A stretch of DNA of 54,196 nt from Catajapyx aquilonaris (lineage: Eukaryota). The notes below the pieces were generated by a model, which worked only from the letters and a program-made list of their open reading frames with translations, made no database searches and had not been told where the DNA came from. Shown here piece after piece: positions 1 to 50,252 of the stretch. Position numbers and translations under genes: made by a program. The number at the start of each line of letters is the position of its first letter. The stretch's first letter is position 1. Location of the stretch: positions 1 to 54,196 of the forward strand of contig JYFJ02002631.1 in assembly GCA_000934665.2 (NCBI GenBank), read 5' to 3'.

Positions 1-269
1 CTCTATCAACAAAACAGTCCGCTTGCCTAGCTCCTCTCGCCTGACGCGTCTGAGCGCACCCGTTCCTTGTCTATGAACCCCCTCTAGATGGCGTTTCTGG
101 ACCATATTCCGGACACGGGTTCCTATGTCAAAAATACTTGTCTTGGTCCCTTCTATTACCCCTACAAGTTTGTCGATTGAATTCATTTGCACCCTGTATA
201 GATGGCATCCATATAGCAAGGGGGGGCCAGAAAACTAAAGGTGATCCCACCATTTCACCGCCACATGCA

Positions 270-450
270 GCTCGGGGTGGGGGTGGGGAGTCACGATCCC
301 CTTTCGTTTACTGGCTCCCCTTGAGATCTCTGGGCCATCTATATTCCAGTCCATATTGTAATCGCCGGACCTTAAAACATAGTAATGGTCAAATCTGTAC
401 ATGTTACCAGTTTTGAATAAAAATACACACAATGACTTAGGACTCAAACC
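270..450. mobile_element. Degenerate fragment of the MITE family found at 41.1-41.9 kb (one TIR arm)
   Basis: GGGGTGGGGAGTCACGATCCCCTTTCGTTTACTGGCTCCCC...ATTGTAATCGCCGGACCTTAAAAC...TGTTACCAGTTTTGAAT is colinear with 41730-41895 (GGGGGTCACGCTCACCTTTTGTTTCCCTGCCTCCC...ATTGTAATCGCCGGATCTTCAAAAC...TGTTACCGTTTTTGAAT). Confidence 0.7.
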
Positions 451-1806
451 TCAAGCAATATTGTGCCTGCGCTGCCAAAAAATTGTGATGAAATTGTGCT
501 GGCAAAATTAGAATGGCCTCCAACCAGTGTGATCTATGGATAACCTCCTGAAACTGAAGTACCTGATCTATTGCATCCATAACATGACAGGGATCAGTGA
601 CCTGAAATCATGAATGGAAGAGAATCTCTTTTTTTATTAACTTGGCAAGTCAGTCTATCCAGATCATATTTAAAATATTATTGATTAGTGTATTAAGTGA
701 TCACTATAGGCCAGGTCAGATGTAGGAAGAATCTCAGATTCAATTAATTTTATTTATTGATGACAACAATCAGGAAATGATGAATAAATCTGGGATTTTT
801 AATGCGTCTGACGGGGAGCAGTTGCCTTTTTTTTCAGTCGTACTGGAAATAAAAAATAAACATCCTAAGGAGTACACCATGTTGTTTGAAAAAGAGTGAC
901 TAACCTTTACACTTATTTTGCGGCCCTTTCTCTTACTTATAGGCAATGACAATAAATTTATTGGTAAATTTGTAACTCAGAGGCTGTGGACCAGACATTT
1001 CAGAATTATCATCTGATACGTAAGGGAGAGTGTAGAGGAATATATGACTCGACTATTTTTCTCAAGGTGTGAAACTAAAGGTTCTTGTCACCATGACATA
1101 GTGGCACCAGCTGACCCAATTCTCCCTGAAGAAATGCAATGTATGATGTAACTGTCTTTGTGAAACTGGCATGAAGAAACTGATTTATGCCACTGCATTT
1201 GAGATTTCTGATATCCCAATCTTTACTCTGTTCCTCAACCACTGCATTATTCCAAATCATTGACAGTTACGTGTGACTTGGAAGTTATCATGAAGCTCTG
1301 ATGGGTTGTTAATACACAAATTCATTTTAAATTGAAGTTTAATCACATGTATCACTGTTGTGCTACTGGCATGATCAAGGTCAAGATACCAAGCATTTGG
1401 GAATGAGTTCTGCTGATCATGAGTATCTATGGGTGTGTGTGAGCATCCAGCCTCCAGTGTACTCGTCAAGTAAAAGTGTAGGGGATGTTATGTTACAATG
1501 ACCAATAATTATGTATGTGACTTAACATTTGCTGAATACAAGCAGCCACTAGTGTTGTAAAAAAAAGCCGGAAATTTTGACTGCCAGAAAAAAACGCTTT
1601 TTTGGGAAAATAGGTTTTCCCCCAAACATATTAATTTTTTTCACAATTTTTGGGGATTTTTTTTGCACAGTATCTCTCAAGTTCTTATCATATCCCACTA
1701 TTCAGAAAAGTCAATCACTGCAACCTGGCATTGTAGTTGTTGTGTTCTACAGCATTTTCTTTCAAAATATGCGATACTTAAAAGTAGAATTGAACTTCAA
1801 TTGCAG

Positions 1807-3303
1807 GCAGGATGTGTAAGACCATCCCTGGACTGGAAAAAAGAGCTCCAACACGATCCACGTAAAGGTGGACTGAAGGAACTGTACCGGGACTGCCACC
1901 TATATGAAAAACTGAATGATTCCTCCGCTGGTGGCAGTAAGTTAGCACACGAGAACTAATATTAGAATCAGTTTCACAACAGGGGCAGATGTGGTCACAA
2001 TGATGTAGGCACAAATCCAGCTCATTTCCCACTACAGTCAGTCACATCATGTTGTTGCAACCATGTCTCAAGCGCATCTGCCCCCGTAGTTTAATAGCAT
2101 GTGTAGTTTAGATTTGGGCATTGGATAAATGCTGTTTCAGGCCACCACAAGTACAAGGTCTACAAAGATGCGGAGCTCATGCACCCATTCCAGCTGTTCA
2201 ACAGCAGCATTGACAATGCCATCATCTGGCCATCATCAAGAGATAGCTTCTTTTTTTTCCGCGCTGTGGTTGTTGACCCTCAGTACAGGTTGGAAACTAT
2301 ACAAATGTTCTTTATTTACTACACTGTTCTATTTTGTTACATTACTAAAAGCTGGATCATTTCACAGTTTCTGTGAAGTTCAGACTTACTTTACTGTAAA
2401 ACTGATTGGATATCCGGTGCAAAAGAGTGGCATCCCATATCAAGTAGCTATGATCATGATCGTGTTTGTCATCGTTTGTTTGCTTATCTGCTACTGGTGG
2501 TACTCGAGGAATTTCAGAGAAACACTCGCTATTCAGCAACAGGAAGCAGAGGCTATGAGAGAGGAAAACAAACGTGTGGTGGGTGTGCCAACAACTTTTT
2601 TCATACCAATATGTTTGTAGTTAGCACATGACAGTATAATAGGGTGTGGTGAGGGGTAGTCAGTCACTTTGGAGGTCACTGTACACTTTGCTGGAAAGTT
2701 CACACTTATTCTGAATGAATGAACTCATTTACAAGTTGGAGGTAGAAAAGCTCAAAATGTCTCTGTGGGACTTACGTAAATTGGGAGTGAATTATAACTT
2801 CAGGGGGTGGATTCATCAAATGTCGTAGTTCAAATTTTCGTCGTAACCGATTGTAACCTTAGTTACCTTATAAGGTAAGGTAACCCATGGTTACGACCGG
2901 TTATGACTAAAATTTAACGTACGACATTTGATGAATCCACCCCAGGTCATTTACCACTTGGGCAAGGTTTGGGCATAATCTAATTAATGTTTTTTTCAAT
3001 GCAAATTTTGATTGATAGACTCGAGGCATGAGAGTTCCAGAGGTAACCCGAGGTAACCTATAAGGAATGATTCAGCCCTGTTTCCCATTGCATGCCTCTC
3101 CTTGTCAGATCTTATGATGCTGTGCCATTAGAACGAGTGCATTTTAAAAGTCTTTTGAGGTAATGGTGAAACATTATCACTGATGTGTGGGCATTTTAAA
3201 AACTTATTAGGTGCTGGCGCGATTGCTATCTCAAGATCACCTGAAGATGGAGATGGAGAGAGTAGCTAAAGAAAAAAGGAAGAGCCACGTGAAGGAAGAC
3301 TGA
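1807..3303 (+). CDS. CATSPERE: 3' exons of a CatSper auxiliary subunit epsilon/delta-like single-pass membrane protein (5' end probably outside the window)
   Basis: Exons 1807-1936, 2141-2288 and 2368-2578 join in frame through GT-AG introns (phases 1 and 2): AGCVRPSLDWKKELQHDPRKGGLKELYRDCHLYEKLNDSSAGGS|HHKYKVYKDAELMHPFQLFNSSIDNAIIWPSSRDSFFFFRAVVVDPQYS|FCEVQTYFTVKLIGYP...QVAMIMIVFVIVCLLICYWWYSRNFRE. This fits my recollection of the CATSPERE C-terminus (GC..W..ENYxxC; PYEIxNSSNGNHIFWP; YVFRVKILDPNYSFC; TM helix then SYFRY). The terminal exon is uncertain: candidate 3211-3303 (VLARLLSQDHLKMEMERVAKEKRKSHVKED*), with AATAAA near 3427. Confidence 0.72.
2804..2943. mobile_element. Palindromic 140-bp MITE (PIF/Harbinger-like termini) in an intron
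   Basis: GGGGTGGATTCATCAAATGTCGTA...TACGACATTTGATGAATCCACCCC. Almost the whole element is self-complementary. The TSD is ambiguous. Confidence 0.8.
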
Positions 3304-3988
3304 TGTGAGCAGGTGGCTGACTAATGACTGAATTGGACTGAAGTCTGGAATTCAGTCTGGATGCAGTTCATGAAAGAGAAAGTTTTCACAGAATTGTTTT
3401 CAATTTTGTTCTGGGTTTCTTTGTCTAATAAATTGAAGGGAAGAAAAGAAAGCTTGTTGACCAAAGGTTATCTTACCTAGGATGTGCCATGGTTTAGTTG
3501 CCTGTGTGACCCGAGCGGTTAGGTACACACAGTAAATAGTCAGTGGGTTCAGTTCTGTCATCCTCTTTAATGTGTTATCTTACAAACATTTAGTGAAAGG
3601 GAAAAAGGATATCAAGGTGGGGTGGGGCACGACCAGTCCCCCGGGATATTGTCCCGGGGAAAAGGCCTGGAGTGAAACAATTCACTCCCTTATATAGCAG
3701 AGTACAGTGCATTGTGGGTGGAAGCACAAGGAAAAGTCACGTGACATAATGCTGGCAGAAAGTAAGAGTGAAACGAATGGGGTAATCAAATATGTACTGA
3801 TATAAAGGTGATGCAAGGTAGCATCAGACTGCATTGAACTGTAGGACGTTTAGACATAGTAAAACCGGTACGGTCACACCTGTCTGTCATATTCTGAACA
3901 GAAATTTGCTTATGATTGAAAGGTTTTTCTGAATCAAGTGATTCTTATTCCCACTGGTTTCACTGCAATTATTGTTCATTTAGGTATA

Positions 3989-4106
3989 TAGTCTGGTGAC
4001 CCGGGGTAGCTTGCCCCCTGGGGTAACTGGTTGTTTACTGCTATCCTCTTACATATGCTGCCATGGTGATTGCCCCCGGGATAGCTTACCCTGGGTCACT
4101 AGACTA
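3989..4106. mobile_element. Short MITE with ~23-bp imperfect TIRs
   Basis: TAGTCTGGTGACCCGGGGTAGCT...AGCTTACCCTGGGTCACTAGACTA. Confidence 0.7.
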
Positions 4107-4309
4107 GGGGCCTTATGCAACACCTGGTTTCATCCACCATACACAATACAAGTCATGTGAAGAGCAAATGTTACTTTTCTCAATTTCATTTGAGATACCA
4201 AATCTGCGTGACTGCTATTGAAGTGTTGGTGGGAAATATGAATAAATCATTACTTCATGCATACATGTGCCTATTTATTGGTCATATTGGATCGTGAATA
4301 CCTGGTGCA

Positions 4310-6121
4310 CTACTCCTCTTTGCTTGCTTTGGAAGGAGATTCTTCTTCTTCTTCCTCTTCGTCGTCCTCTTCCACCTCACCTGCTGGTTTCCACTGGCCA
4401 ATCATGATGGTGCTAGTGACTAGCACAGCCGCAATCTGCAAAGTACATACATCGATGTAAAGTTCCATGTCTTTACCTAGTGTAAGTAAATTATGATAGA
4501 ACTTGCCGATGTCAGAAGTGGCCGTGATAAACTGAAGACGCCGGATGCCGTGATGCGGATGGGAGGTCCTGACATTTGCTGGATCGTCGCCTTGACCTCT
4601 TCCTTAAGTTCTGGACCGAGGCTACCAATGCGCAACTTCATGAGGTCATGTGCAGGGGATCTGGCCTCACGGGCGATGCCATCGGAGGCACTGACCATTA
4701 CCCAAAATCGGATGAAGTACGTCATAGTGATTACCGCAAAGAAGATTCTGAACGTGGTCCTTTCATGATCTTTCCAGTACAGGACCAGAAGGCTAACACC
4801 TAGTCGGAAAATCAGACCCGTGATGTGGATTATCATTGCTGGCCCGTATATGGAGCTAACCTTGTTGGCTATCTCTGCTAGTTCCTGCAATGGAGTTAAT
4901 AATAGAGTGACAGTTATCAGAACTCGAATACTCAGAAGCTGGGTAGTGGTATTACCATGTGAATGAGTCTGGCCTGAAACAGGTGCTTGGCTGTGTCCCT
5001 TTCGTCAACGAATAACGCATTTGACATGAAATTGGGAAGTACGAGTCGAGGAGGCGCTTTCTCCTCTTCTGCAGCCGCCTCTGTGTCGACTTTTGAGCTT
5101 CCTATCCGGAGGCTCTCGGGGGGCTGTTGAAAACTGGCCAACAGATGTCTCGTTCCGTGGCCGAGTATGGAGAACCTGCGTCTGATAGCATCTGCCAAGA
5201 AGATGACTTGCAACGCGATGGCCGCATCCATCATTTCTCCAAACCCGAGGCAGAGAGCAAAGGCGTAGTCGCCAATGTTTTCCTTCAATGGGAAGTCCTT
5301 CTTGAACTTGAAGATGTACCGACCCAGAACGAATCCCATGGGAAGAGTGCCCAGGCCAGCCAAAATCCTTCCTTCCCACACCATTGCCGAGTTGACTTGA
5401 GGGCTTAATGACTCGTCCACTTCCTGCAGCTAAACATTTTGCAGGTTTTAAGTTTGACATACCACATAATATAGGGTATATAGGTAATTATGCCCTCAGT
5501 TCATCAGGCACTCAACAAGCGAAGAAAATTTACAGAAGGTCGTGATTGTTGCTTTTATTTAAACTACTACCTAAAGTGATCAATGCATCACATGCACAAT
5601 GTATAATGTGCTGTACTTACCTTTAAAAGAAGCCTGCATATGCTCTTGTACTTTCCCTGCATGACGGCATAGTTGGCCACTGCTGAGATTCCAACAGCAA
5701 TGTAGGACAGCACAGCACTGTAATAGTCGAACCAGTGCATTTCCTCCAATAGGTCGAAGAGAACAGGCCAGTGTTGGTGCCACACGAAGAAAGTTTGTCC
5801 CAATGTTGCTATTGGAACCAGCGGCGTCAAGAACTCCCTGGACGTCCATCTCTTTGAGCTGGCCGATGCGGAGGACGCTGGCAAGAGCTTCTGAGGGATG
5901 AGCCATTTGGCTGGAAATACTCCTAGGAGAGAAGATATAGCTGCCACAGGGAAGAAGGCCCCGAAGACTGTCGTGGGTTTCGGGCTTTCCTTCTCAGGCA
6001 GAACTTCATCTCCAAGTGATGCTCCTTCTGGTTGCTGGCCAAAGTAAGAGGCGTCGTCACACGTGGAATCCCGACGCTCTATCACCTGGATCACGGAGCT
6101 GTCCAATTTCGTGCCCGCCAT
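4310..6121 (-). CDS. Gustatory receptor GR1 (divergent; 4 exons)
   Basis: Exons 6121-5621, 5423-4956, 4884-4507 and 4435-4310, all phase 0. The last intron uses a GC donor (TCG|GCAAGT). Motifs: LLGVFPAK, PPIRITASGVFSLSRPLLTS, and a divergent TM7 IAAVLVTSTIMIGQW followed by an acidic tail. Confidence 0.88.
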
Positions 6122-6685
6122 ATGTACAGCGCTCCAATGTCAAAAGAGGCACGAATTGTTTCTCTCCGTTGGGGGAGGTCCAGCGCACCGTGAGAATGTA
6201 CCCAGCTGAAACTTTTGGATTCGGACCACCCTAATGCGGTTTTGAGGTCCGTAAGCACGTTTGAAATATGGACGAGGGCCATTACAGGTCTTGCACGTGT
6301 GTTGTTCTCATTGGGTTTCGAAAGATTTATTTGGATTGCTTTGACCTTTATTAATATTTGGCGCAGTCTGATTTCTGACATGCAGGGTTTTTTTGCCATT
6401 TTCGCCATTTTCGCCATTTCGATATTTTTGATTAATTTCGTGGTGCATTTATTATCACATTAGCTATAACAATGCCAATAGGGGAACGTGATTTTACCAG
6501 GAAAGGGGAGCCGAAAAATATATTATTTTCCTGGGAATAGCAAATACTTGTCGATGCTTTTTATAGGGGACAGCTAGTGATATGTAACTAATATCCCTAA
6601 TAATTGTAACTACATGCAGTAGTGCTCTGCCTCAATTAAATAATTATATTCTGTACAGTAGGGCCTAGTTTGAAACCTTGGAGGA

Positions 6686-17308: not shown

Positions 17309-19293
17309 TTACGGCATATTTTTCGTTGCTAGCTGTAGTCCCAAGGTATAATTGTCACCACAAACACATATGCTTGGCGGACACACGCAGGGTTCATTGT
17401 AGTTGTGGTTGTAATCGTTGTCGATGTAATCACCGGACTCATTCCAACTGCCGGGGCCAACTGGGATAAGATAGGACATATTCAAAGGGAAATAGTGCAT
17501 GCGGGGAGAAACAGGCAATCTCCTGTTGAGGGCATAATTGGTAATGTCGTGGTCACCAAGTATACCACCAATACCACCAAATTCTGGTTCTGGAGTCGTA
17601 ATGAAAGTCTCGTTGTCGTACTCAGCAGTTGATGCGGGAACAATAATTTCCGAAATCTTGAACTGCGCCAAGACAATTAAGTAGGTGACGACTGCAGCAG
17701 CAACCTTGCAACGGGATAGAAAAATTATTAAACTGTACTTCCCCTCCGGAAAAGTGATGTGACTTTAATGTGCAGTACGACTTACAGAAGTCACGAGTCC
17801 TCGATTGATGGAGAAGAAATTGGCTGCAGATATTTGCATTGAAGGACCCATCATGCGGTGTATCAATTCCTGCACCTAGAGGAAACGAGAAGTACACATA
17901 TTATTCTGGTCAGATACTGACATTCGTGCTTGTAGCCTACTATAAAATAGAAGTGTAACATTGGTACTAGCAGGGTCTCTGAAAATTTAATATGCAGTTT
18001 AAGTATACGGTAATACAGTATAAAATACTGTAGTGGGCGGCTGACACATGGGCTTTAATTGCTGGTTAATTAATCATAATATTTTCACCTCCACTTAATG
18101 AAACCTTACCTGCAATCGTACATCAGACGCTAGTCCAATTAGCTTCACTTTGCAAAGATGTGGCAAAGCTAGAGTTGACTGCACATTTGAGAGGACAAAA
18201 ATCACAACAGTGCCATTAGTTTATACGATAGCAAAAATACAATGCAGTTTCAAGAATAATCTCAACTCACCTCATGTGGAATTTTCTGCAGAGAGTGGCA
18301 TGTCCACACTACCAAAACAACTGATATGAGCGTGTCCGCAAATATGTACATTTGAACCACGATGCTGACATAAAAGGCCAAAGCTAACCCGGTCACAATT
18401 TGGATAAGAAAGGACAAGAAATTGACGACAAGGCATAAACCATACAAATCTCCTACAGCACTGACCACATCTCCCATTTCGGTGTAACAACCCAGGGCTT
18501 TGGACAACGTGTCCGAATGTGTCTCTGTCATTTCAATGCATGTGTAATCTTTAGGCAAAGGGTTTTCTGGCATGCTGCTAGGAAGCACGCTTACAAGCTG
18601 AATCACGCTGTCGTTGACTTGGTGCAGACGGAGACATATCGATTTACCCAAGAATAAGACATGGACAGTCGGGATGATGGGCAGGATGCAAATGAACAAC
18701 AAAAGGAGAAAAAATATCAATTCGCTGACTACAGACACTTGGGACTGGGTCATGAAGAAATGCCTGGACATGTAGTAGCTCACCCACAGAAAGGTCACGT
18801 AAAAGAAAATGAAAAGCAAGATATGCCATGCTCTTTTTCGAAGCACGTGATTTATGGGATCCATTACGGTGTGCGTCTTAACCCACTCGTCGTACTTGTG
18901 GATGCGAAGAAACAGATCACAAATGTCACGACATTTCCACCGCACCAACCAGTACTGCACCATCGCGTGCATCACTCGATTCACAGCAAGCCCTATCAAA
19001 ACTTGCTTCAAAAATGGATACTCAGTGATGTGTATTTGATTCTGAATCATCACCACAATCACGGCCACTATGGACGACAACATCAGCATTGATATGATAA
19101 TGGACAAGGCCGAGCAACAGTAATTCAATGAACCGTACGGCACATGCTGGACACGTACGACGTTCCTGACAGGCAGCAGTCCAAAGACCCAGGTGAGAGT
19201 GGCCAGTGGTCGAAATGCGTGGTATATGGTGGGCACAACCTGGCCCGATGATTCCTGTCCACTTGACGACTTCTTTTTCGATCTTTTGAACAT
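17309..19293 (-). CDS. Gustatory receptor GR5 (clade A; very long C-terminal tail)
   Basis: Exons 19293-18271, 18178-18110, 17875-17786 and 17704-17309. TYLIVLAQF is followed by ~116 more residues. Confidence 0.92.
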
Positions 19294-19571
19294 GGCCGCA
19301 CTAGTTGCTGCAGATTTTCCGACGATCACATGACTTGGGCGTCTACAACTTGTTAAAGATTAGGCTAAAATGGAATGGGTGTGGTTGTCTTTTCAGAGGT
19401 TCTTTGACCCGGCCTGCAGTACGCAAGTCCACAATGTGCATATAGGCGGAGTTATTAATTTCTAGACAATTATTCTAGCATATGTAACTTGCATGTCTGA
19501 ATTTTCTCTCATGTCAGACCCAGAGTTGTATTAAATACATAATGTATATACATTGCTGGATTTTCCACATA

Positions 19572-21111
19572 TCATTCGCTCATGTTGAACTGGATCAAGA
19601 TGACTAGGTACGTAGTAAGAGCACCAGCCGCCTGTAATGAGAAGAAATTCATATTAAAACCCGGTACATAGTATTTCAAGATTTCTGCAAATGGGATTAT
19701 ACCGAAGTGAGAAGTTTGCGATTGATGACGAAGAAATTGGCCGCAGTGATGTCCGGAGGTTTACAGCTCATTTTGCCAATCATCATTTTGATTTCTCTTC
19801 GACATTCGCGGTTTAGAGGATTCAGACTCAGCTTTTCAAGGTCGGCCAAGCTCGAATTGGCCTGGAATGAGTATAATTATGTGCATTATTATCTTGCATC
19901 GAGTGTGGGCAGTCTCATAAGGATAAATATTATTAGACTAACCTTCGTGGTAACACCTTCAACGACGACACAAATTGAAATCAGTTTAAAGACCATGAAG
20001 ACGAGATAAGCACCGATGAAGGCCACTTTCTCCACTTCGGAGTCGACAATATTGGCTATGAAGGCGTATGTCACAAACAATATGGTTATGAAGCATCCTG
20101 CAAACTGAGTAAAGAGCAGCCAGCCAAAAGCTGCTGATGACTTTTCAACCAAGCCATTCAAATGTCCGTGAATCCTGCGAAAGCTTTCCAAACGTGAGGC
20201 CCATTCAACAGCAGACGATGTCCACGAATGTGGTCGTGTCTCTGTGTTGTCAACAGCAATTTCTAAGTTAGTCGAGATGAATTCTCTGACATTTGTTTCA
20301 TACGTGCGGTACAAAACACGTAGCAGGCTGCACAACAAAGCCATTCTAACAAACACATCAATAGTCATTATAGATCCAATTGTGTGCAGGATATGGAGAT
20401 CAGCGTTTTGGATATCTGTTCGTAATAGGAAGATACAAATGGCTATAAATGTGCCCGATGAGAGTAGATAAAAGGCAATGTATGGTATTTTGACTGCCCG
20501 TGATTTCTGTTTGCATTGTGCTAGTAGAGGGTTGATTTTATGGAAATCTTGCAGGAGGCGAACCCACTTGGGTGACAGTATCACTGACCAAAGGCAGCAA
20601 GCTATGTTCATGCCATGCATTGCCCCCTGAAAAAATAACAAGTTACAATTAAAATAGTGGACGTACGTTGTCGAATGGGAATTAGATTGCAAAACTACTG
20701 GAATTTCAAAATGTGATGGGCACGACCAGATTAAATGCCATAATGTGGGTTGCAGTTTTGGCGTACATAAATTAGTGTACTGACCGTAGTGACGTAAACG
20801 GCTATGTAGTCGATCAGTTTCAGCTTCCTATTTACGTCCACCAATGCGCTATAGTCGAGACGTTGCAGCCAACTGTACCCTAGGGACAATAGCAGGAGTA
20901 CCATGAAGCAGCTCCAAGCTCCTTCAGCACTGGCCAGACTACTTTCAATTTTCCAACCATCTTTCCTGAATATGATGTTTTTCACCGGAAATATTCCCAG
21001 GATTTTGGACGATATCAGGATAGGCCGCAAAAATGACACTACATCCGTAGGTGACTGAGAATCGTCTTTCTTTTTATCAACTTGGTCAGTAGGTCTGAAA
21101 AAACGTTTCAT
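19572..21111 (-). CDS. Gustatory receptor GR6 (clade C; 4 exons)
   Basis: Exons 21111-20785, 20626-19943, 19861-19703 (159 nt) and 19631-19572. Motifs: LRPILISSKILGIFPVKNI, SSAAFGWLLF, AAGALTTYLVILIQFNMSE*. Confidence 0.92.
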
Positions 21112-21853
21112 CCTCTTCCCCTCTAGTGTACCTACTGTTGCATATGTCTTAATTGAAAGAGACCACACGATGTATGACAGCGGTGCATTTTATTCACGTC
21201 CCAGCAGGCGGTGCTTCAGATGCCAGCATACAAACACCTCCGAGGATCCCTTTTGCCCTTTCCAAACAGGACGTGTCACTCCAATATATCGATTCATATC
21301 AATGATTTTCCTCTCCGGCTGAGCAGATAAATGGCTCAGGTTCGTGTGACATTGACGGTTATGAAGTACGCGAGTATTGCTGTTCTTGGGAGGTGGTTTG
21401 GGTATTGATTTGCACCGTGTCATGTCTTCTGAAATTTAGTTACGAGCTTTACAACCTTTAGGGTCATGGAGGACATTTATTGCTATGGGACGTGACTGTG
21501 GGAGTGACAAGGTTAAGGGTACCGTAATGGAAAAGGGAAAGGATGGGTACGGTACGCTGTTTACCAGGAATAATTAATCACTTTGATTTGTTTCACATCT
21601 GTCATTTTAGATTTATGTGCGTGGAGTGTCACATAGAGAGAGTGAAAAACATGATTCTGCCTTCCTTCATTATCGGCACTTCCCATTACATCACATTGTA
21701 ATACATCATAATACATATTTCATCTATGTATTTATATGATTATTCGAGAGTCATACTCAATAATTATTTGATATTAATCATGGTATTGTACATTCCAGTG
21801 TATCATTAAAATTTCGAGATTCAATTTACGCATTACATCAATTTGCGCATCAG

Positions 21854-23394
21854 TTAATATTGCGTATAGTTGTAATATGTAAGATTTTCAGCAGAAGTGT
21901 TCGAAAAGTCACTTGATTCTGCAGAACTAGCAAATGTGCCATAATCATCGGAGTTCCATTCTTCTTCTTTTTCGGCGCTCTTGAACTGTGCCAAGACGAG
22001 CAAGTAAGTGATGACAGAAGCAGCAATCTGGAAAAAAAAGCAAATTGGTAATAACTTGGCATAGAATGGAAACAGTTGCAAATGATTTTTACTGAGGTTA
22101 GTAGTCCTCTATTCACTGAGAAGAAATTCGATGCGGATATCTCCACTGTAGGACCAGTCATAAAATGTGTCATTTCTTGCACCTGCAAACACAATTTGGC
22201 AATATCAAAAGATAGCTGGAATTTGATGCAAAATTGTCTCACCTGCAGTCGGATTTCAGTTGGAATATCCAGACGACTCACTCTACGGAGGTTTGGATAA
22301 ACTCTCATGGACTGAAATGTTCAAGACAGTGAGTATATGTAATACACTAATATTTGACTGGATTGAAGTACCTCTTTCGGAATTTCTTGCAGGCAAGTGC
22401 AGGTCCACACGACAACTATTGTTGACAACAACGTGTCGGCTATATTGTGGATGTCGTCATAGGATTCAGGTTCATACAGAATTAGTGCCACTCCGGCGAC
22501 AATTTGTATTAGTGATGACAAGAAACTGACTACTATGCATGTGCCGTACAATTCTCCTGTCGTATTGACCAGATCTGCCATTTCGGCATCGAGTCCCATC
22601 AAAAAAGACAACTGTTTAGCCTTGTTTGCGTACATTTCCGGAGTATAAATGACCTCATCATGGGGAGATGACATCACGTTTTTTGGAAGGCTATCCAACA
22701 ATTCTAATAAGGTGTCATTACCTTGGCGAAGTCGGAAATAGATTGACTTTCCCCAGAAAATAATGTGCAGAATTGGGATGATTGGAATTAAGCACATAAA
22801 TATTAAAATAAAAAATATTCCGATGTGATAAAATAAGTTGACAGTAAATTTCCCCAATACAACTACATAAAATGCGTCCAAGCAACCCACATAGACGAAT
22901 GCGAAAAGAATCAGAAACCATGCCCTGCGATGCATAAGTCTATTAACAGAATATTTTGTGACAGAATTATTGGTAACGACCCACTCATCATACTTGTGAA
23001 ATCTTAGGAACAAGTCAGCTATTCTTCGTGACTTGCATCTCAACAGAAAATATTGAGTCAGTGAATGGACAACCCGATTCACTGATTGCATTAGGAAAAC
23101 TTGATCAATTACTGTCGTGTCATGTGGAATATAAATAAAGCCAAAATATCCACGACCAGCCATAAAGAACATGATCATTGTAAGTGCAACTACTATGAAA
23201 TAGGCGCAACAGACAGGATTTAAAGATTGATACGGTCCAGAGTAGATGTTCTTGACTGGAAAGAGTCCGAAGATCCACGTGAGGATGGCCAAAGGTCTAA
23301 AGGCTTGGTAAATATTAGCCACAGATGTCGAGCGTCTTCTGCAACAACTGCTAAAAACTACTGTCCGATTTTTCTCACTTTCTGGCCCCGCCAT
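21854..23394 (-). CDS. Gustatory receptor GR7 (clade A)
   Basis: Exons 23394-22372, 22311-22243, 22182-22093 and 22027-21854. Motif: IAASVITYLLVLAQF. Confidence 0.93.
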
Positions 23395-23445
23395 ATTTTT
23401 TTTAACTGCACTGAATAAGCTATTTCAAAGCGAATGTCACCGACT

Positions 23446-30548: not shown

Positions 30549-32272
30549 TCACCCAAGAGGAAAAGTGTAGTTCATATTATTAAAATGAGTGTTGTAATCC
30601 GATTCGTTATAAGGTGGATGTAGTGTTATGCCGTACGCCGGATCTGGAGACGTGAACTGATTTTTACAATCGGACGTACTGTTTTCTGCACTTTTAAATT
30701 GTGCCAGAACAATCACGTAAGTAACTACAGACGCAGCGATCTGAAAGAAAATGAGAATTCTTGTTACGAAGTACCCTTTACATGCATATTCAGCAAGCAC
30801 TTACGGACGTAATCAGCCCAGTATTTACTGAGAAGAAATTAGATGCTGATATCTGCACTGGAGGGCCTGTCATGCGATGTATCATTTCCTGCACCTGTTC
30901 AATTCGATAGGCAGGCGTAATTTATTAATATTTAATAAAACACAAATGTCTCACCTGAAACTGGATGTCAGGCGAAGTGTCATGGAGATTCACTTTGCAC
31001 AGATGTGGCAATGCACGTGTTGACTAAAATAGTACAAATATGTGTTAAACGACCCTATATTCTTATAGTAAGTTAATCTTAAATTACTGGACCCAATTCA
31101 CTTGATGGTCACTCGTGACTCTCCTGTCCATTAAAAGCCAGCTTCGTGACTTAACTCAATTTCTACATGACAACCGGGGATAATCACTAGTCACGCATAC
31201 ACATGTGAGTTGTGCCCATGGAGTTGATTACCTCTTTTGGAATATTTTGCAGGCAAACGCAAGTCAACACTATGAGCACTGTTGACATCAGAGTATCGGC
31301 GATTAGGTGCAGTTCGTAAGTTAGGGTGTGATAGAGGATTAGGGACAACCCGGTGACAATTTGTATCAGAAATGAGAAAAAGCTAATAACCAAGCAAATG
31401 CCATACAAATCTCCCGTGATATTAACAAGGTCAGCTATTTCTGCATTTAATCCCATTAACTGAGAAAGCTCTTTGGCTGTATTCAAATTGGCCTCTCTCG
31501 ACTCCTCGAACGACAATGGTGACATATCCACGCTCTTAGGCAGACTATCCACAAGTCTAATGATAGCATCGCTGATTAGGCTAAGGCGCAGGTATATTGA
31601 TTTCCCCAGAAAAAGCACGTGCAAAGTTGGAATGATTGGAATGAGGCATATGAATGATAAGGATAAAAACAGAAGTATTTGTACCGTCAAGGGATCTCCA
31701 CGCACAAATATAGAGTACGTGTAAAACGCATGTAAAAAACCGACGTAAATAAACGCACTTATAAACAGAAACCGGGTTCTGCAATGCATGATTCGGTTGG
31801 CAGACCTCTTCCTAGTTGTAGTGTTGGCCGCCACCCATTCGTCGTACTTGTGAAAACGAAGGAACAAATCAGATATCCTGCGAGACTTGATCCTCAGCAG
31901 CCAGTATTGCGTCACGGAATGCACTATTCGATTTCCAATAAGCACTACCAGAACTTGTTCCAACACTGACAAGCGAGGTAGCCGAAAGTCAGGTCCAAGA
32001 ATGACCATTGCCGTGTTCACAAAAATCGCAGAAATTGCCAAAAACAAGACGATGAAGCAGATGCAACAGACACAATTCAAAGATTCGTACGGACCGCGAC
32101 AGATATTCTTGACCGGTAAAAGTCCGAAGATCCAGGTTAGGATAGCCAAAGGTCTAAATGCTTCGTATATTGTCTTGCTATCTTGCTCACATGACACAGG
32201 CCGACTTCTCCAACAATTATTGTTGCACAGGCAGTTCCTGTGATCACTATCACTTTCAGGCTCCTGATACAT
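30549..32272 (-). CDS. Gustatory receptor GR10 (clade A)
   Basis: Exons 32272-31232, 31023-30955, 30894-30805 and 30740-30549. Motif: IAASVVTYVIVLAQF. Confidence 0.93.
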
Positions 32273-32319
32273 GTTTAGAACCCCGCACTGTTGGGCAAAA
32301 GTATCCAGGACCTACTAAT

Positions 32320-33039: not shown

Positions 33040-34646
33040 CTACATGGGTTCACTCAGGTTGAACTGGATCAAGATGACTAGATAAGTAGTGATTGCTCCT
33101 GCAGCCTGTCAAGACAGAGAAAACAAGGTGGTTAACAATCCGCACAAAATATTGCAAGTATGAAAGCGAGTACCGATGTGAGTAGGCGGCGGTTGATTGT
33201 GAAGAAATTGGCAGCAGTGATGGCTGGTGGTTCGCAGCTCAATTTTTGAATCATCATTTTGACCTCGCGTCGACATCCTGGTGCTAGGTCACGGATGCTT
33301 ATTTGCTGGAGGTCTGCTAAGGCTGAATTTGCCTGAACATCAAGCAAGATTCTATTACATCGTTATGCAATAACGATTCCAAACGTGTTAAACAAGCCAT
33401 GAAATTGACAGTGCAATGGTACTAAAAGTATAGCGTGACAATACAGAGTGGCATGCATAATCTATATCATAATGGTGAAGTTAAGCTGTGGTTGACTGAC
33501 CTCGGTGGTGACGCCTTCCATTTTGACACAAAATGCCACCAGTTTGAAGATCATGAAAGCCATGTAGAAACTCATCATTGCGATTTTAATCGGATCACGT
33601 TTCAGATATCCAGAGATGAAAGCATACGCGAGCAGTATAATGACAGAGAAACAGCCGACGAACTGAACAAACAGGAGCCAACCAAATGCGTCTGACGACA
33701 TTTTAACCATTCTATTGAGATGACCGTGAAACGTGCGAATATTCTGCAACAATTTGGTGAATTCTTCGCATGGGAGTTCTGTGTAAGGTGTAATGACAAA
33801 ATTCTCCGTCCTATCTGAATGTGTTAAGATTGAATCTCTGATCCTATTCGAAAGTGCGGTATACAAGACGTGAAAAATACTCGACAAAAGCGACATGCGA
33901 ATGAATATCTCGCTAATAATTATTCCTCCTATCGTATACAAAACATGCAAGTCCGGATTTAACGGGTCCTGATTGATCAGAATGGGGCAAACCGCAATAT
34001 GGATAATTACAATGAATGCGTACAAAATCAAGTATCGCGTTCTCCTGTCACGAAGCTTCTGCTGTACAGGCTCAAACAGGTAGCACATCTCATTAAAACT
34101 TTCTAAAAGGTTAGCCCACCGAGAAGACAAAACTACAGATAAAAAGCAGCTTATGATGTGCGTCCCATGTATCGCTCCCTGTGAGAAGAAAATGAATCCT
34201 TAATTTCTTATTTGTTGTAAAATATGTAAATAAATGCTAACCAAGTTGGCGTAGATGGACACATGATCTATAAACTTGAGTTCCTTTTGAATTTCCACTA
34301 GTCCACTGTAGTCGACTCTCGTTAGCCAGCTGTATCCAAGTGATATCAACGCTGCAAACACTGCAAGACTCCATATTCCCTCCAGACTGATCAGAGATCT
34401 CTGCAGCTTCCTCCCAGGTCTCCTGAAGATCACATTTTTGACCGGAAACACTCCCAGAATTTTGGAGATAGTCAGAATTGGGCGCATGAATATAACAAAG
34501 TCCTGAGTGCAGGCACTGTCACTCACTCGGCATCTGTCACTGGACCGATGCAAATCTTCCAAGACTGATGCGTCGACAGGATGAACATCTCGAGGTGAAC
34601 GGAGCTTAATTGATGCTGTGTAAAACACACTCTCGGAAAGCTTCAT
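33040..34646 (-). CDS. Gustatory receptor GR11 (clade C)
   Basis: Exons 34646-34242, 34178-33501, 33332-33174 and 33105-33040. Motif: AAGAITTYLVILIQFNLSEPM*. Confidence 0.92.
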
Positions 34647-35248
34647 GATTTGGGTGTGTTGCTCTGTCTGCTGGCGAAATGCTTTCTCTTTCTACTCGGT
34701 TGATGCACTTCTTTTGTCATTTATGATATCGTGATATGCTGGCCGGATATTCCTTGCGACGAGATGGTGATTAAACATTGGTCGATTCCGGGAAAACTAT
34801 ATTTTTGGTTGGTGTCTGCGCAGATGGGCGTGTCGTGTTCGTGTCAATTTCCCATCCTTTCTGCATCGAGCGCCTTCAATTTTTTCTATCGCGTACATTG
34901 AAATACTCGGTGAAATGTCAACGTGAATTCGCATATTTGCCTGTGACTGTTTTATATTAATGTTTATTTAATGAACGTTTCATGTTGCAATTTGCAGAGG
35001 AAAGTTGAGGTTGCTCGGCGAAAGTGATCAAGATAGTCAATACGGTATGTGTTAGATAAGTGATGCAAATATAAGCCTAAATCTAATATTGTACTAAAAA
35101 TTGGTGAAATTCTGCTTAGACGACGCCACAGGTTACATAGGAATGAAACAATTTGTTACCACATGAATAATAATGCAGATACGTACTGCGTGAAGAATAT
35201 ATTGCAAATGAAGGTGGCAGTGGAAATTAGTAAATATTAATGTTTTTA

Positions 35249-38768: not shown

Positions 38769-40508
38769 CTATGGAGGTGGGGCATGTGTTACTGCATTAG
38801 TTGGTCCTTCGCTAATGTTGAACTGCACCAAGATGACCAAGTACGTGGTGATGGCTCCAGCTGCCTACAAAATAATAGTCAGCGTGAGAAAGGCCAGTTT
38901 AGAAAAACCGTATGACCAACACAATCTTAACTAATCATAGAAATGAGGGGATAATAAAGTTGAGTGACCGAAGTGAGAAGTTGACGATTGATGGTGAAGA
39001 AATTGGCGGCAGTGATGACAGGTGGGTCACAGCTCAGCTTTTGAATCATCATTTTAACTTCACGCCGAGACTCAGGATCCAGGTGACTCACACTGACTTG
39101 TTGCAGGTGCATCAGACTTGATTTTGCCTACACAAAACAAAACAAAAAGTATACTGATTACTGCCAAACATTGCTTAGTCAAGACAGCAGAAAGTGACTA
39201 ACCTCAGTTGTAACTCCCTCTACACATACGGAAAAGAAAGCTAGCTTGCAGATCTGAAAGGTCAGGTACAATACAATCAGCACCATCCTGACGTTCGTTG
39301 TTTTGGACCCGACCATTCCTGACATAACGTTGTAGAGCAAAAAAATAACATTCATGAAGCATTGCGTGAACTGAATAAATAAAAGCCAGCCGAATGCTGC
39401 AGACGCTTTATCAACTAGAGAATGGAGATGGCCGTGACTTTTTCGAAGATTTTCTAGATTCTGTGCCCTAAGTGACGCCAACAGACTCCTTCTGGATCCT
39501 GCTGGCACAAATGCTGCATACTCCGCAGGTGATAGGACTCTCTCTATCTTGTTTCCGAGCGATCTGAACATAAACTGAATGACTTTTGATAGGAATATCA
39601 TTCGGACGTACACGTCCGTCTCAAATATCTCCCCAGCTGTGAAGAACACGTGCAAAGTCATACTTCTTGGATTGGTGACTGTCATCAAAACACAGGAGGC
39701 GACATATGTAATTGCAAGAATGGCCGTAAACGCAGAAAAATAAAATCGTTTCTTCAGAATCCGAGACTTGCAATCTTCAAGGAGATTTTCCACCGCCTGA
39801 AATCCCTCGAGGAGTTTAATCCATCGGGAAACAAGGAGAATAGACATGACGAAGCCTGTCATCTTCATAACATTGCTTATCCCCTGAAAACGTAATAATA
39901 CATGTCGTGTTAACTTTTAGTAATGTAATTATGCGACAGTAATTTGAAATACATTTAAGCAACCATGCCAATTAATATAAGCAAAAACCTCACATTGGTA
40001 GGTTCAGATAAGTATATCAACAGGCACTTCAAATTAGCACTCATGCGTTCTTGTGATATGACAACTAAGTCAACTATGATTATGCTATACTAACCACAGT
40101 TCCATAAATCGTAACGTAGTCAATGGTTTTGAGTTCCCTGTCTGGGTCCGCAAAGCTTCCCAGATCTGGGTGTAGTATCCAATCGGTTACCAAATATACC
40201 ATGCCCGCGAAGATAAGGAGGGACCAGACACCTTCAGGGCCTGCCAAACGCCTCTCCAGCCTGCATCCAGGATTCCTGAAGACAACATTCCTCACTGGAA
40301 ACGCTCCCAATACTTTAGACACGATCAGAAAAGGCCGCATTATAGACACGATATCGCTTCTCTCTATGGAATTCCATGCAACTTGTTGGTCGTTGACTCT
40401 TCTTAGGTTCACTCCTTTTGACACCATCTTCAGGTGATCAAGTATGCACTTCCTTTTCTTGTCAGCTGGCACCATGTCCCTGTCGTCACATGATGCCAGG
40501 AGTTTCAT
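38769..40508 (-). CDS. Gustatory receptor GR13 (clade C; recent paralogue of GR15)
   Basis: Exons 40508-40095, 39883-39203, 39127-38969 and 38864-38769. Motif: AAGAITTYLVILVQFNISE. Confidence 0.92.
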
Positions 40509-41132
40509 ATTGGCATGTAGACCTACTAAAGAGACTCTCCCTCCACACTTTGAGATTCTCTTGATACTACGTCTACCTCTATATGACGTCTTAAATAATC
40601 CAATTCGTTGCGCCTTTCCCTTGAAGGACTGGAGGCTCACCCAATTGTGGTCGATTTTGGGATGACCCCCTACTGCGCAGAGCTGGTTGGTGTCGTGTTA
40701 AGAAGTCTGGTTTTTCTATGCTATTTATTGCTTGGGCATTGAATTACCATTATTTTCTTCCAGTGTCTGTCGCATTTTTGATTTGGTAGCTCTCATAGAT
40801 TTTTTCTGAGGTTATTGTTATATAGAGTGAATTGAAATGACAATATATTCATTGACACTGATGTATTCAATGCCATGTATTTAAGGTGCATTCCATTAAT
40901 CACAATAAGTGCTACCCATACGATGGAGCTAAAAAATGGGCATTTGAGAGATTACGCACGTAGTACATTGGTATACTTCTTCTTGCATTGATAAATGCAT
41001 GCTGTCAAAAATATCATTATTATACAATCATTAGAACTTTCCAGAGACAGTAAGGTAGAGTACAAGGGCGTCTTTTTACACGTAATTGATTTGCCATTTC
41101 TTTGAATACGTATATGCAGGAGTTTTCATACA

Positions 41133-41911
41133 ACGAGGATTGTTTCATAAGTCATGGCGCGTATTTTTAAATTCAAAAAAGGTAACACATACAGAGATGA
41201 CCTTTGCTGAGTTTTGAAGCTCCGGCGAATACAATTTCATCTAGCATATAGATGTCTCGCATATCTCCAGGGAGGCAGGGAAACAAGAGGGGATCGTGAC
41301 CCTCCCCCCCCCTCCCCCACCGCACCATCGCCCTAAGACGGCTCCAGCCAGACGCGCTTGGAGCTGTTGGACGCTGCATGCTGGACACTCGGCGATGGAC
41401 AACACAGGAGCTTGCTTTCGAGTGTGGGACAATTATTCAGAGCACTATGACCGTAGCCATGTGTCGTCATTAGCCACAAACGGTTTGAAAAACACATCGC
41501 CCTCAATGCGCTCGAGTTCCAAGCGAAGGCAAAATGGTGGCTCTTTGCACATCAAAGAGATGGTGAGGAACCAGTGAGGATGCCAACATCCTGAGACCTT
41601 TCAGTCTTTCAGAGTCCTGAGCATGACTTGTCCCACACTCGAAAGCAACCTCCCGTGTTGTCCATCTCCGAGTGTCCATCATGCAGCGTCGAGCGTCCAA
41701 CAGCTGGAGCCGTCTTAGGGCGATGGTGAGGTGGGGGGGGGGGTCACGCTCACCTTTTGTTTCCCTGCCTCCCTGGAGATATGGAAGACATATATGTGCC
41801 AGATCAAATTGTAATCGCCGGATCTTCAAAACTCAGCAAAGGTCATCTCTGTGTGTGTTACCGTTTTTGAATTTAAAAATACGCGCCATGACTTATGAAA
41901 CAACCCACGCA
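41133..41911. mobile_element. ~780-bp MITE with ~300-bp imperfect TIRs (mariner-like termini)
   Basis: 41141-41432 (TGTTTCATAAGTCATGGCGCGTATTTTTAAATTCAAAAA...GAGTGTGGGACAA) is the reverse complement of 41628-41902. The element is absent from the paralogous site at ~50330-50350. Confidence 0.88.
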
Positions 41912-42523
41912 TAGTACCGTATGTGGTCCAGCCGCGATCACACTAGTTCGTCCAAAATGATTGAAAATGGATAGAATATGTCGAAATATCAACAAACGAA
42001 GCTGCTCCTGTACTCCTGTATGTTTAGTCTCAGAAGTGTAGCAGAGAAGTGTCATGTTTATTTTTGTTTTCAAATTGTTAATTTTTAACGATATATTTGG
42101 AAAAGTCGTAAAATGGAGCGTCGTAGAAAGGTGCCTACTTGTACATGGTGCACAGTACAGCAGGTTACATAGGTCGGTTACTCGTCCCACTGCTAGTTAG
42201 CAGACCAATGTCAACAACATACTAATAACCAATGGTAATCCATAAAAAAGCGTATGGAAGAATACTCACTATCAGAAGCAGGCAGATAGCAGAGACTAAG
42301 CAGTAGGACGAAAAACCCACCCTGTAGTCAGGATTCCTCCCTGACCTTTCTCAACGATATGATTGCCTGGGTTATTAGAGATTTTGGGAGCGGAAGTATT
42401 GATAGCCAGCAGTGGCACAAAACAGGGAATTATTGTTTATAACCATGATATAAAATGGCCGTGTCACATAAGGAATCATTAATCGTGTTTTGTCAATATT
42501 ATTATTTCAGATCCTCGCTCCTC

Positions 42524-44190
42524 TTATGAAGCTTTGCATGACTGTGCTTCATCGGTTTTCTCTCCCATCTTGAACTGCAACAAGACCACCAAGTAGGTAG
42601 TAACAGCACCTGTCAACTGAAAGAGAAATTATATTGCATTTATGATTTTACACATATACAAGTAGCCTACTTTAATCGAGATTCTTCAACGTACCGAAGT
42701 GACAAGTCCGCGGTTGACTCCAAAGAAATTGGCTGCAGTGATAACAGGAGGATCAGCTGTCAACTGATGAATCAACATCTGCACCTCTTGGCGACTATGC
42801 GGATCCAGTCCAGATAGGTTCACACGGCGAACGTGGCTCAGCCCCGAATTGGCCTGAAATGAAGAGCAAAGTTGTGATCGGGATAGAAAACCTTGTGATT
42901 GGAAATGTAATCATCACCTCGTTGTGGAGTCCTTCCAAGACGAGGCACAAGATGGAAAGCTTCAAGAGAGACATTCCCAAGTAGGCGATGATAGCCAGCA
43001 ACTTCTCCATCATAGATCTGTCTGAGCTTGTGTCTGAAAGGCTCAGGTAGAGTACAAATATGAGGGTGAGGAAGAATCCCAGGACTTGAGCCAGGAGGAT
43101 CCATCCAAACGCGCTGGAGGATTCCTCGACCCGATCATGAATAACTCCATGGAGTCGTCTCAGTTGACTCAGTCTTTCTGCTGGACTTTCTTCTAACCAA
43201 GCAGCTTGCTTCGAAGCATCTTGGTTTTCTAGTTCTCCTACTATCTTTTGTAAGTTGTCTGAAATAGTTTTGTACAAGCAGCTGCAAGAGGCAGCAATCA
43301 GGGTCATCCTAACGTATGTGTCGCACTGGATCATTGCTCCGAAGGAGAATAGGAAGTGAAGGTCGCTGTTCTTTGAATCTACGTACATGTACATCCCTCC
43401 GGTAATGGTATGCATAACGATTAGAGATAATTCCTGGATGAGAAAACTGTTTCTCAAATATTTGAGTCGAGTGTGGCACTGATCGACGAGGACTTGGACC
43501 GATCTGAATCTTTCTAGCAAGTTGGCCCATCGGTGGGACATCACGATGGACAATATGATGCACAACAAGCTGGTTCCATTTGCCGACAACTGGAATCAAT
43601 AGCAAGTCATGACTTAGTGAATAATGCTCGAATCATTACATCGGATCTAGTATTGAGAAAAGGCAGCGGGAATTATACGTATCTTACCATAATGGAAAGC
43701 ATATGAGGAGAGAATTTGTGAAAGTTGTGCTACGACAATATCTCTCTTCCCCTTTATGCATTTTTGTTTTGTAAAATCAAAGCCGGTTCACTATCCATCA
43801 GCTGGTAAATATTACAATCACGGAAATAGTTACTCATATACTAACCAGGATCCCGCTCATCGACACCTTATCCGTCATCACGAGTTTCTTATCATCATGG
43901 GCGAATGGTGTGTAGTTCATATGCCCAATCCAGCTCTGGGCCAAATAAATCATAAGAGCAAAAACGGAAATGCTGTACAGGCTATCTAGACTGAACAGAC
44001 GAACTTCCAGCCTGCGGTCACGTCGACGGCGTATGACGTTTTTTACTGGAAATAGGCCAAGGAGCTTGGTGGCAACCAGAACAGGACGAATGATTGAGAT
44101 GAAGTCGTTGTTGGATGCCATCTCCTCTCCTGTCAATCCCTCTCTTGGTGTAACAAAGATAGGAGTGGTCTTAGACATTGTCCTGAACAT
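42524..44190 (-). CDS. Gustatory receptor GR14 (clade C; recent paralogue of GR16)
   Basis: Exons 44190-43846, 43589-42918, 42853-42695 and 42616-42524. Motif: LTGAVTTYLVVLLQF. Confidence 0.92.
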
Positions 44191-44525
44191 CACGGCGTCT
44201 CATTAACACTTCTGACACTGAAAGTCAAAGGCGCCCTTTACTGCATAACCATTTTTCCATATTCTATAATAATATTCCTGCTCAGCCTGACTTATATGCA
44301 ACCTCACCCTTGGCAAGCGGGTCGTATAGGATGCAGGCTCAAAATTAAAACCCGGTTACCTTCAGCCGCAGGCCTTCATATAATACAATGTATTATTATT
44401 CAGGTTTTATGAGTTTGCCAGCTTATAATAAGTTACTCTACATCTCTGCGAAAATGGCCTGAAGAAGGGAGGATTTGAAGATTACAAAATATAGGAAATA
44501 ATATCTTGTCCTTCTATGTATTATA

Positions 44526-47642: not shown

Positions 47643-49590
47643 CTATGTAGGTACGGCAGGTGTTACTGGATTCGTTGGACCTTCGCTCATGTTGAACTGT
47701 ACCAAGATGACCAAATACGTGGTGATGGCTCCAGCAGCCTACAAAAAATAGCTGTTGTTACTATACAGTGTATGAGAGTTGTCAGTTTAGTATAATCGCC
47801 TAATACTGTCGCTGAGATTTCTATTAGTATCCTGATGATTTGCGTAAATGCAAGTGCAAGTGAGCATCACGCTGGATATTTTTTCTGCCTCGTTAGAGAA
47901 CAAACAATCTGATTCTGCAGGGCAGTGCAGTGTTACTTGAAATCGACAAAAATTGAGTTTTTGGAATAATGACGCACATAATTCAACATATATAGACAAC
48001 AAAATATCCACATTATTATTATTATGTATTGTCTTTAATAAATGTTGCCTGACCGAAGTGAGAAGCCGGCGATTGATGGCGAAGAAATTGGCGGCAGTGA
48101 TGACAGGTGGGTCACAGCTCAGCTTTTGAATCATCATTTTAACTTCATCCCGAGACTCAGGTTCCAGGTGACTCACATTGACTTGCTGCAAGTGCATCAG
48201 ACTTGATTTTGCCTAGACAAAACAAAAAATATATTACTGCCAAACATTGCTTAGTCAAACCAGACGGATTGAGACTAACCTCAGTTGTAACTCCCTCTAC
48301 ACATACGGAAAAGAAAGCGAGTTTGCAGATCTGAAAGGTCAGATACGATACAATCAGCACCATCCTGACGCTTGTTGTTTTGGACCCGACCATTCCTGAT
48401 ATTAGGTTGTAGAGCAAAAAAATAACAAGCATGAAGCATTGCGTGTACTGAATAAATAAAAGCCAGCCGAATGCTGCGGACGCTTTGTCAACTAGAGAAT
48501 GAAGATGGCCGTGACTTTTTCGAAGATTTTCTAGATTCTGTGTCCTAAGTGACGTCATCAGACTCCTTCTGGATCCTGCTGGCACAAATGCTGCATACTC
48601 CGCAGGTGAGAGGACTCTCTCTATCTTTTTTCCGAGCGATCTGAACAAGAACTGAATGACATATGACAGGAATATCATTCGAACATACACGTCCGTCTCA
48701 AATATCTCCCCACATCCGAGTAAGATATGCAAAGTCAGACTTCTTGGATTGATGGCTGTCAGCAAAATACAGGAGGCGACATATGCAATTGCGAGAATGG
48801 CCGTAAAAGCAGAAAAATAAAATCGTTTCTTCAGAATCCGAGACTTGCAATCTTCAAGAAGATTTTCCACCGCCTGAAATCCCTCGAGGAGTTTAATCCA
48901 TCGGGAAACAAGGAGAATAGACATGACGAAGCCGATCAGTTTCATAGAATTGGTCATCAACTGAAAATGTAAATAATACAAGTCATGTTAACTTTTTGTA
49001 ATGTAATTATGCAACACTATAGTACTATTAACAACCATGTCAATTAATATAAGCAAAAACTTAACATTGGTAGGTTCAGATAAGTATATCAACATGCAGG
49101 CACATCAAATTAGCACTCATGCCTTTAACTTGTGCTATCATGACAACTATGATTATGTTATACTAACCACAGTTCCGTAAAGCGTGACATAGTCAATGGT
49201 TTTGAGTTCTATGTCTGGGTCCACAAAGCTTCCCAGATCGATGTGCAGTAGCCAATCGGTTGCCAAATATATCATGCCTGCGAAGATAAGGAGGGACCAG
49301 ACGCCTTCAGGGCCTGCCAAACGCCTCTCCAGTCTGCATCCAGGATTCCTGAAGACAACATTCCTCACTGGAAACGCTCCCAATACTTTAGACACGATCA
49401 GGAGTGGCCGCATTATAGACACGATGTCGATGTCGCTTCTCTCAGGGGAATGCCATGCAACTTGTCGTTCGTTGACTCTTCTTATGTTCACTCCATTTGA
49501 CAGCATCTTCAGGTGATCAATTATTATACTCTTCCTTTTCTTGTCAGCTGGCACCATGTCCCTGTCGTCACATGATGCCAGGAGTTTCAT
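47643..49590 (-). CDS. Gustatory receptor GR15 (clade C)
   Basis: Exons 49590-49168, 48960-48280, 48212-48054 and 47738-47643. Motif: AAGAITTYLVILVQFNMSE. Confidence 0.92.
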
Positions 49591-50127
49591 ACTGGCATGT
49601 AGACCTACTAAAGAAACTTTCCCTCCACACTTTGAGATCCTCTTGATACAATATTATGTATATATGCCGTCTTAAATAATCCAATTCGTTGCGCCTTTCC
49701 CTTGAAGGACTTGAGGCTCACCCAATTGTGGTCGATTTTGGGCTGACCCCTACTGCGCAGAGCTCGTTGGTGTCGTGTTAAGAAGACAGGTTATTCAATG
49801 CTATTTATTGCTTGGGCATTGAATTACCATTTGTTCCGGTTTCTGTCGCATTTCTGATTTGGTAGCTCTAATAGAAAAAACTATTTTTAGGTCATTGTAA
49901 TATAGAGTGAATTGAAGCGACAATATATTCATTGACACTGATGTATTCAATGCCATGTATTTAAGGTGCATTCCATTAATCACAATAAGTGCTACCAGTT
50001 ATTAGCTCTTGGTGCTACCCATACGACGGAGCTCAGAAAATCGGCATTTGAAATATTACGCACGCAGTACATTGGTAATACCTCTTCTTGCATTGATAAA
50101 TGCATGCTGTCAAAAATATCATTATTA

Positions 50128-50252
50128 TCCTCTAGAGACCCAATGTATAGTATGCTATACATCCGGTCCGCATTTTTTTAACCTCAGAAAAAATACTCAG
50201 AAAAAAATGCAGACCGGATGTATAGCATACTATACATTGGGTCTCTAGAGGA
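50128..50252. mobile_element. 125-bp near-perfect palindromic MITE flanked by TA
   Basis: TCCTCTAGAGACCCAATGTATAGTATGCTATACATCCGGTC...GACCGGATGTATAGCATACTATACATTGGGTCTCTAGAGGA. It is absent from the paralogous site at ~41020 (ATCATTATTATACAATC). Confidence 0.9.

Follow-up and report, generated by a model that had tools for sequence, protein, structure and literature searches.

The CatSper channel is essential to mammalian male fertility and to sea-urchin sperm chemotaxis. According to the available portion of PMC9205950, the whole channel is lost in mice when any one of its transmembrane (TM) subunits is lost. The same portion describes the sea-urchin channel (CATSPER1-4 plus beta, gamma and epsilon), an invertebrate form of CatSper with an epsilon-type subunit present at 1:1 stoichiometry. 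Epsilon follows the same pattern of gain and loss as CatSper1-4, beta and gamma, one that can be traced to flagellated protists, as stated in the accessible text of 10.1101/459487. The paralogue CATSPERD (delta) has in common with CATSPERE (epsilon) the C-terminal domain family PF22850 and the single-pass architecture.

In the window, the whole stretch of 54,196 nucleotides that was analysed, positions 1807-3303 of the plus strand are very probably the 3' end of a CATSPERE-type gene, that is, of a gene for an epsilon-type CatSper auxiliary subunit (CATSPERE/CATSPERD family), as judged by sequence comparison. The last ~100 residues of mouse CATSPERE (PDB: 7eeb, chain H) are collinear with exons B and C of our model, and both proteins have an N-x-S sequon, W-P and D-P-x-Y, then F-C followed by one TM helix with an aromatic-rich inner end and a short tail. 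The tail is 51 residues long here, whereas the mouse chain ends 13 residues past the aligned part. The similarity is low (19.8 bits for exon B and 15.1 bits for exon C) and the comparison is limited to the C-terminal part of the protein, with most of the ectodomain probably lying upstream of the window.

Gene model and transcript evidence

The model consists of four exons (Table 1) whose joined frame is open for 582 nt, giving 193 amino acids and a stop. AG stands at each of the four acceptors and GT at each of the three donors. Codons are split at both the A/B and the B/C junctions, a single frame being retained through the 130 + 148 + 211 nt of exons A to C, and exon D joins exon C in phase 0. 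The initial annotation had proposed three in-frame exons within 1807-2578; the canonical AG/GT sites and the fitting phases bear this out, and every peptide string that it quoted is present in the exon translations, among them the NSS sequon, the DPQY that closes exon B, the hydrophobic segment and CYWWY. Its statement that the motif is split across frames is right for exon C, which is shifted by the 79-nt second intron, but not for exons A and B, which share a genomic frame across the 204-nt first intron. Exon D, with the TGA, is an addition to that earlier model, which ended at 2578. Exon A is assigned to the gene by its splice sites and frame alone.

Table 1. Positions of the features of the four-exon model in the window.
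Feature	Position	Strand	Description
Exon A	1807-1936	+	130 nt, phase 1 at end; acceptor ...attgcag, donor gtaagt; first exon found in the window
Exon B	2141-2288	+	148 nt; acceptor tttcag, donor gttgga; membrane-proximal extracellular stretch with N-x-S sequon
Exon C	2368-2578	+	211 nt; acceptor tcacag, donor gtgggt; end of ectodomain, TM helix, start of cytoplasmic tail
Exon D	3211-3303	+	93 nt; acceptor ttattag; final 30 codons of the tail, then TGA
Single predicted TM helix (approximate limits), CYWWY at its end	2432-2503	+	hydropathy and alignment with the TM region of mouse CATSPERE
AATAAA, likely polyadenylation signal	3427-3432	+	pattern search; 124 nt past the stop

The 193-residue model has one hydrophobic segment, at residues ~112-142 [12 Kyte-Doolittle windows of 19 residues exceed 1.6, all of them starting within residues 112-124], from which 51 residues follow to the stop. 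The protein end thus has a single TM helix near the C-terminus and a short tail, as the family architecture requires. The cytoplasmic tail is rich in lysine and glutamate. No upstream exon was recognised in 1-1806, and 0 of 18 plus-strand ORFs (17 of them within 1-1959) match any CatSper family in Pfam. Searches of the window with Rfam and for tRNA genes returned 0 matches and 0 genes, respectively.

A search of sequencing runs with positions 1800-2600 identifies four DNA runs, all from a single sample from which the assembly may have been made, and a run of unrecorded kind and tissue from a different sample and study (X5), in which 0.49 of the sampled words are present. None of these runs is on record as RNA. 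The contigs of X5 and of one of the DNA runs (X1) were compared over 1-4400. One of the X5 contigs, 354 letters long, aligns to 2364-2577 and goes on at 3210-3335, skipping 632 bases with GT..AG ends; the 2578 to 3211 joint has a depth of 4.2 with 126 letters on its shorter side. This joint was not found in DNA run X1. The contig shows directly that the junction of exons C and D is used, and the gene therefore appears to be transcribed and spliced. The same X5 contig carries 14 unplaced letters past 2364, as would be expected if it continued into exon B. X5 contigs also cover 3313-3500, which includes the AATAAA at 3427.

An unspliced X5 contig at 2552-2791 runs across the exon C donor. On reading through this donor the frame stops 14 codons on, at 2618-2620 (ORF 2129-2620), and the contig may represent a second, shorter form of the C-terminus or just pre-mRNA. 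X5 is without cover in the bins 1765-1911 and 2206-2352 and has a further unspliced piece at 816-1118; nothing is concluded from the gaps.

Similarity to CATSPERE and competing readings

Five peptides from the window were used as queries against the sequences of the PDB (177,635 distinct sequences, E <= 10). The two best matches of the exon B peptide are both CATSPERE, with 45 of its 48 residues aligned: a 921-residue CATSPERE chain [PDB: 9ubw/9ubx, residues 823-867, E = 0.0074] and the mouse chain [7eeb_H, residues 872-916, E = 0.0083, 19.8 bits]. The exon C peptide matches residues 918-972 of the same mouse chain (E = 0.16, conditional E = 9e-07, 15.1 bits), so that the two matches are collinear and adjacent, and the one residue between them is that of the split codon. 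Two other proteins, a designed TM protein and Piezo1, score slightly above CATSPERE with the exon C peptide, because a TM helix draws unrelated membrane proteins. None of the three control peptides (exon A and the upstream ORFs 1017-1151 and 726-899) matches CATSPERE in the PDB at E <= 10. Treated as a directed test on one target, exons B and C together weigh far more than either match by itself, with a joint expectation near 1e-8 by our own arithmetic, which is far beyond chance. In the alignment the N-x-S sequon of exon B shares a column with the N-Y-S of mouse.

In Pfam, exon B matches a single family, the CATSPERD/E C-terminal domain PF22850 (13.9 bits, E = 0.039, positions 130-162 of 215); exons were scored singly, and this score falls below the curated cut-off of 27.4 bits. 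No PF22850 match is reported for exons A and C, likewise scored singly; 53 positions of the domain model remain after the exon B match, and exon C has 54 aligned residues. The PDB matches of exons B and C, PF22850 and the single hydrophobic segment agree with the proposal of the initial annotation that the locus encodes the C-terminal region of CATSPERE/CATSPERD with one TM helix. The GC..W...C motif that it cited for exon A is unconfirmed, as this exon alone shows no similarity in the PDB or Pfam, neither to CATSPERE nor to PF22850. Unlike epsilon, delta chains are absent from the PDB matches of exons B and C at E <= 10. Since epsilon, not delta, is found among these matches and among the subunits to which the accessible text of 10.1101/459487 assigns the shared ancient gain-and-loss pattern, epsilon-type is the better label, though the evidence for it is weak.

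Larger collections add little. In a library of 1.84 billion representative proteins, exon B finds neither a CATSPERE orthologue nor any relative above ~50% identity. A word-index search of a 5.8-billion-cluster protein collection gives no match for the exon B and exon C peptides against longer proteins. The ESM Atlas has no usable match for exon B, and scans of metagenome contigs with exon B and with one gustatory-receptor ORF reveal no relative.

Two other readings of the locus have to be weighed. It might be an orphaned or truncated copy that retains just the 3' part of a CATSPERE-type gene, a duplication or a transposon insertion having severed it from the upstream exons, in which case it would be transcribed and no channel subunit would be made; we regard this as improbable. 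Such a fragment would fit the lack of a recognised upstream exon within 1-1806, the very high-copy repeat at 1-520 (depth to ~3x10^5 vs ~35 for single-copy sequence) and the unspliced X5 contig over the 2578 donor (2552-2791). However, the 193-codon frame is open, the splice sites are canonical, the conserved columns are kept and one contig is properly spliced. As to the upstream part, PF22850 positions 1-129 need ~130 more residues, which possibly lie before the start of the window, and the upstream introns may exceed 1.8 kb. The initial annotation had also held that the gene is not a relic, a view that the open frame, the splice sites and the spliced contig uphold.

The locus might instead encode an unrelated single-pass membrane protein that is like CATSPERE by chance, for example a hemopexin-like blade followed by a TM helix as in membrane-type metalloproteases, and this we consider very improbable. 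The thought arises from the phmmer search of the 1.84-billion library with exon B, in which the only five matches at E <= 0.001 are repeat proteins, three of the five being built of hemopexin repeats and two of other tandem repeats; exon B is identical to one hemopexin repeat at 12 of 20 residues. These E-values, however, are sums over 3 to 9 repeats that are nearly the same; one repeat taken alone has a score of 30.8 bits, at which 48 x 2.36e11 residues x 2^-30.8 gives thousands of chance matches (our own arithmetic). The Pfam Hemopexin family does not match exon B at E <= 10, and among the PDB matches at E <= 10 there are 0 hemopexin-domain proteins, CATSPERE coming first over 45 residues. 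Exon C, moreover, independently extends the alignment to CATSPERE. The library matches being summed chance scores without hemopexin support from Pfam or the PDB, a hemopexin-blade identity for exon B was rejected, and an epsilon-type CatSper subunit is the reading retained here.

The stretch behind these matches is a 20-residue motif in exon B (2194-2253), L-F-N..I-D.A-I.W-P-S....F-F, that resembles the first blade strand of a hemopexin repeat (PF00045) in a bacterial protein. The likeness is judged to be chance: for a single repeat the match does not exceed chance, and the adjacent exons are not in keeping with the repeat.

Gustatory-receptor array and its junction with the gene

A tandem array of gustatory-receptor (GR) genes, about 16 of the 7tm_7 family, fills 4.3-53 kb of the window (4310-53000) on the minus strand. 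Pfam 7tm_7 is matched by 16 of the 30 scanned ORFs at E <= 0.01, and 15 of these exceed the cut-off of 26.6 bits. The motif TY.....QF follows an acceptor in 15 minus-strand final exons and is divergent in one, at 4417. Two gene structures recur, one with a single long first exon of ~310-390 codons (e.g. 18262-19359, 22321-23424 and 31187-32311) and one in which this long exon is split in two (e.g. 20731-21189 + 19889-20827; 34200-34691 + 33462-34199). Features in the Atlas lead to 7tm_7 clusters in which arthropods supply most of the known members, and the word-index search with a 365-residue GR ORF against proteins of similar length gave no match.

Positions 38952-44268 and 48036-53007 form a segmental duplication of ~5.3 kb with two GR genes, the copies being 87-93% identical in DNA. 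The closest GR gene to the CatSper-like gene is in a tail-to-tail arrangement with it (4310-6139, minus strand). Its last exon has TSTIMIGQW in place of TY.....QF, and its C-terminal tail is acidic and rich in glutamate; the gene may be a divergent member of the array or a decaying copy.

Between the gene and the array are repeats (3.5-4.1 kb) in which the short-read contigs are interrupted. A single contig of X5 connects 3313-3500 with 3879-4091, and both flanks have equal depth in X1 (35.6 and 33.5). Contamination or a mis-join between 3.3 and 4.3 kb had been raised in the initial annotation as a check on its reading; the bridging contig and the equal depth argue against contamination, while the adjacency itself is unproven.

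High-copy repeats occupy 1-520 and 3505-4116, with a summed X1 contig depth of ~3x10^5 at 1-147 and ~1.4x10^4 at 3970-4116 (single-copy ~35). By eye, 3985-4105 resembles a short element whose terminal inverted repeats are imperfect; a repeat search of 3300-4300 found nothing at seed 9. A form without the 378 bases of 3501-3878, which have CT..AC ends, is present in both X1 (depth 34.3) and X5 (depth 9). Because the shorter form also occurs in a DNA run, these bases are taken to be an insertion or deletion by which haplotypes or individuals differ in a repeat copy, and not an intron.

Proposed role and lineage

By analogy with the complexes of mouse and sea urchin, the complete protein would be a type-I membrane protein with a large extracellular part, made up in this family of beta-propeller and Ig-like parts, that is probably encoded upstream of the window. 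Together with the beta and gamma subunits, epsilon would make up a canopy on the outside of the cell above the pore tetramer of CATSPER1-4. To this the part of the protein found here would contribute the membrane-proximal end of the ectodomain, the helix that anchors it beside a pore-forming subunit and the lysine- and glutamate-rich tail. Because loss of any TM subunit removes the channel in mice, Ca2+ entry into the sperm flagellum would depend on this gene wherever the channel persists.

The host was first taken to be an arthropod from the GR array. The array itself is real, with 7tm_7 matches in 16 of the 30 ORFs and TY.....QF in 15 exons, but it is not diagnostic. The 7tm_7 gustatory-receptor family occurs outside arthropods too, and so the array does not prove an arthropod, plausible as an arthropod host is. 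The GC content (0.40-0.44) is uninformative on lineage.

The novelty claimed for a CatSper subunit in such a host was overstated, as CatSper is on record in several invertebrate groups in the accessible parts of PMC6660944 and PMC13674862. The former places CatSper in Echinodermata, Brachiopoda, Cnidaria and Ctenophora, describes arthropods as mixed and gives the channel as absent in Mollusca. The CatSper1-bearing species in Table 1 of the latter include at least one springtail, one brachiopod and one tube worm among the annelids. No dedicated study of CatSper in arthropods or springtails is among the matches listed. With CatSper recorded in several invertebrates, an epsilon-type subunit in one more is therefore an expected part of the channel and of modest interest; its importance would grow only should the host prove to be a protostome, arthropod or other, that has all of the subunits. 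That an arthropod host lacking a public protein annotation keeps a complete, expressed CatSper channel with its epsilon subunit is a tentative proposal that we hold to be rather unlikely. In a bolder version, the epsilon-type gene would outlive the pore subunits and take another role.

If an arthropod with the full channel were indeed the host, the very patchy arthropod record of CatSper would be widened and a protostome would become available for studies of sperm Ca2+ signalling by way of CatSper. Since many animal lineages have lost the channel, every additional lineage in which it persists is of help in dating the losses. Such lineages would also test the co-evolution of CatSper with the sperm Na+/H+ exchanger and soluble adenylyl cyclase that is proposed in the available text of PMC6660944.
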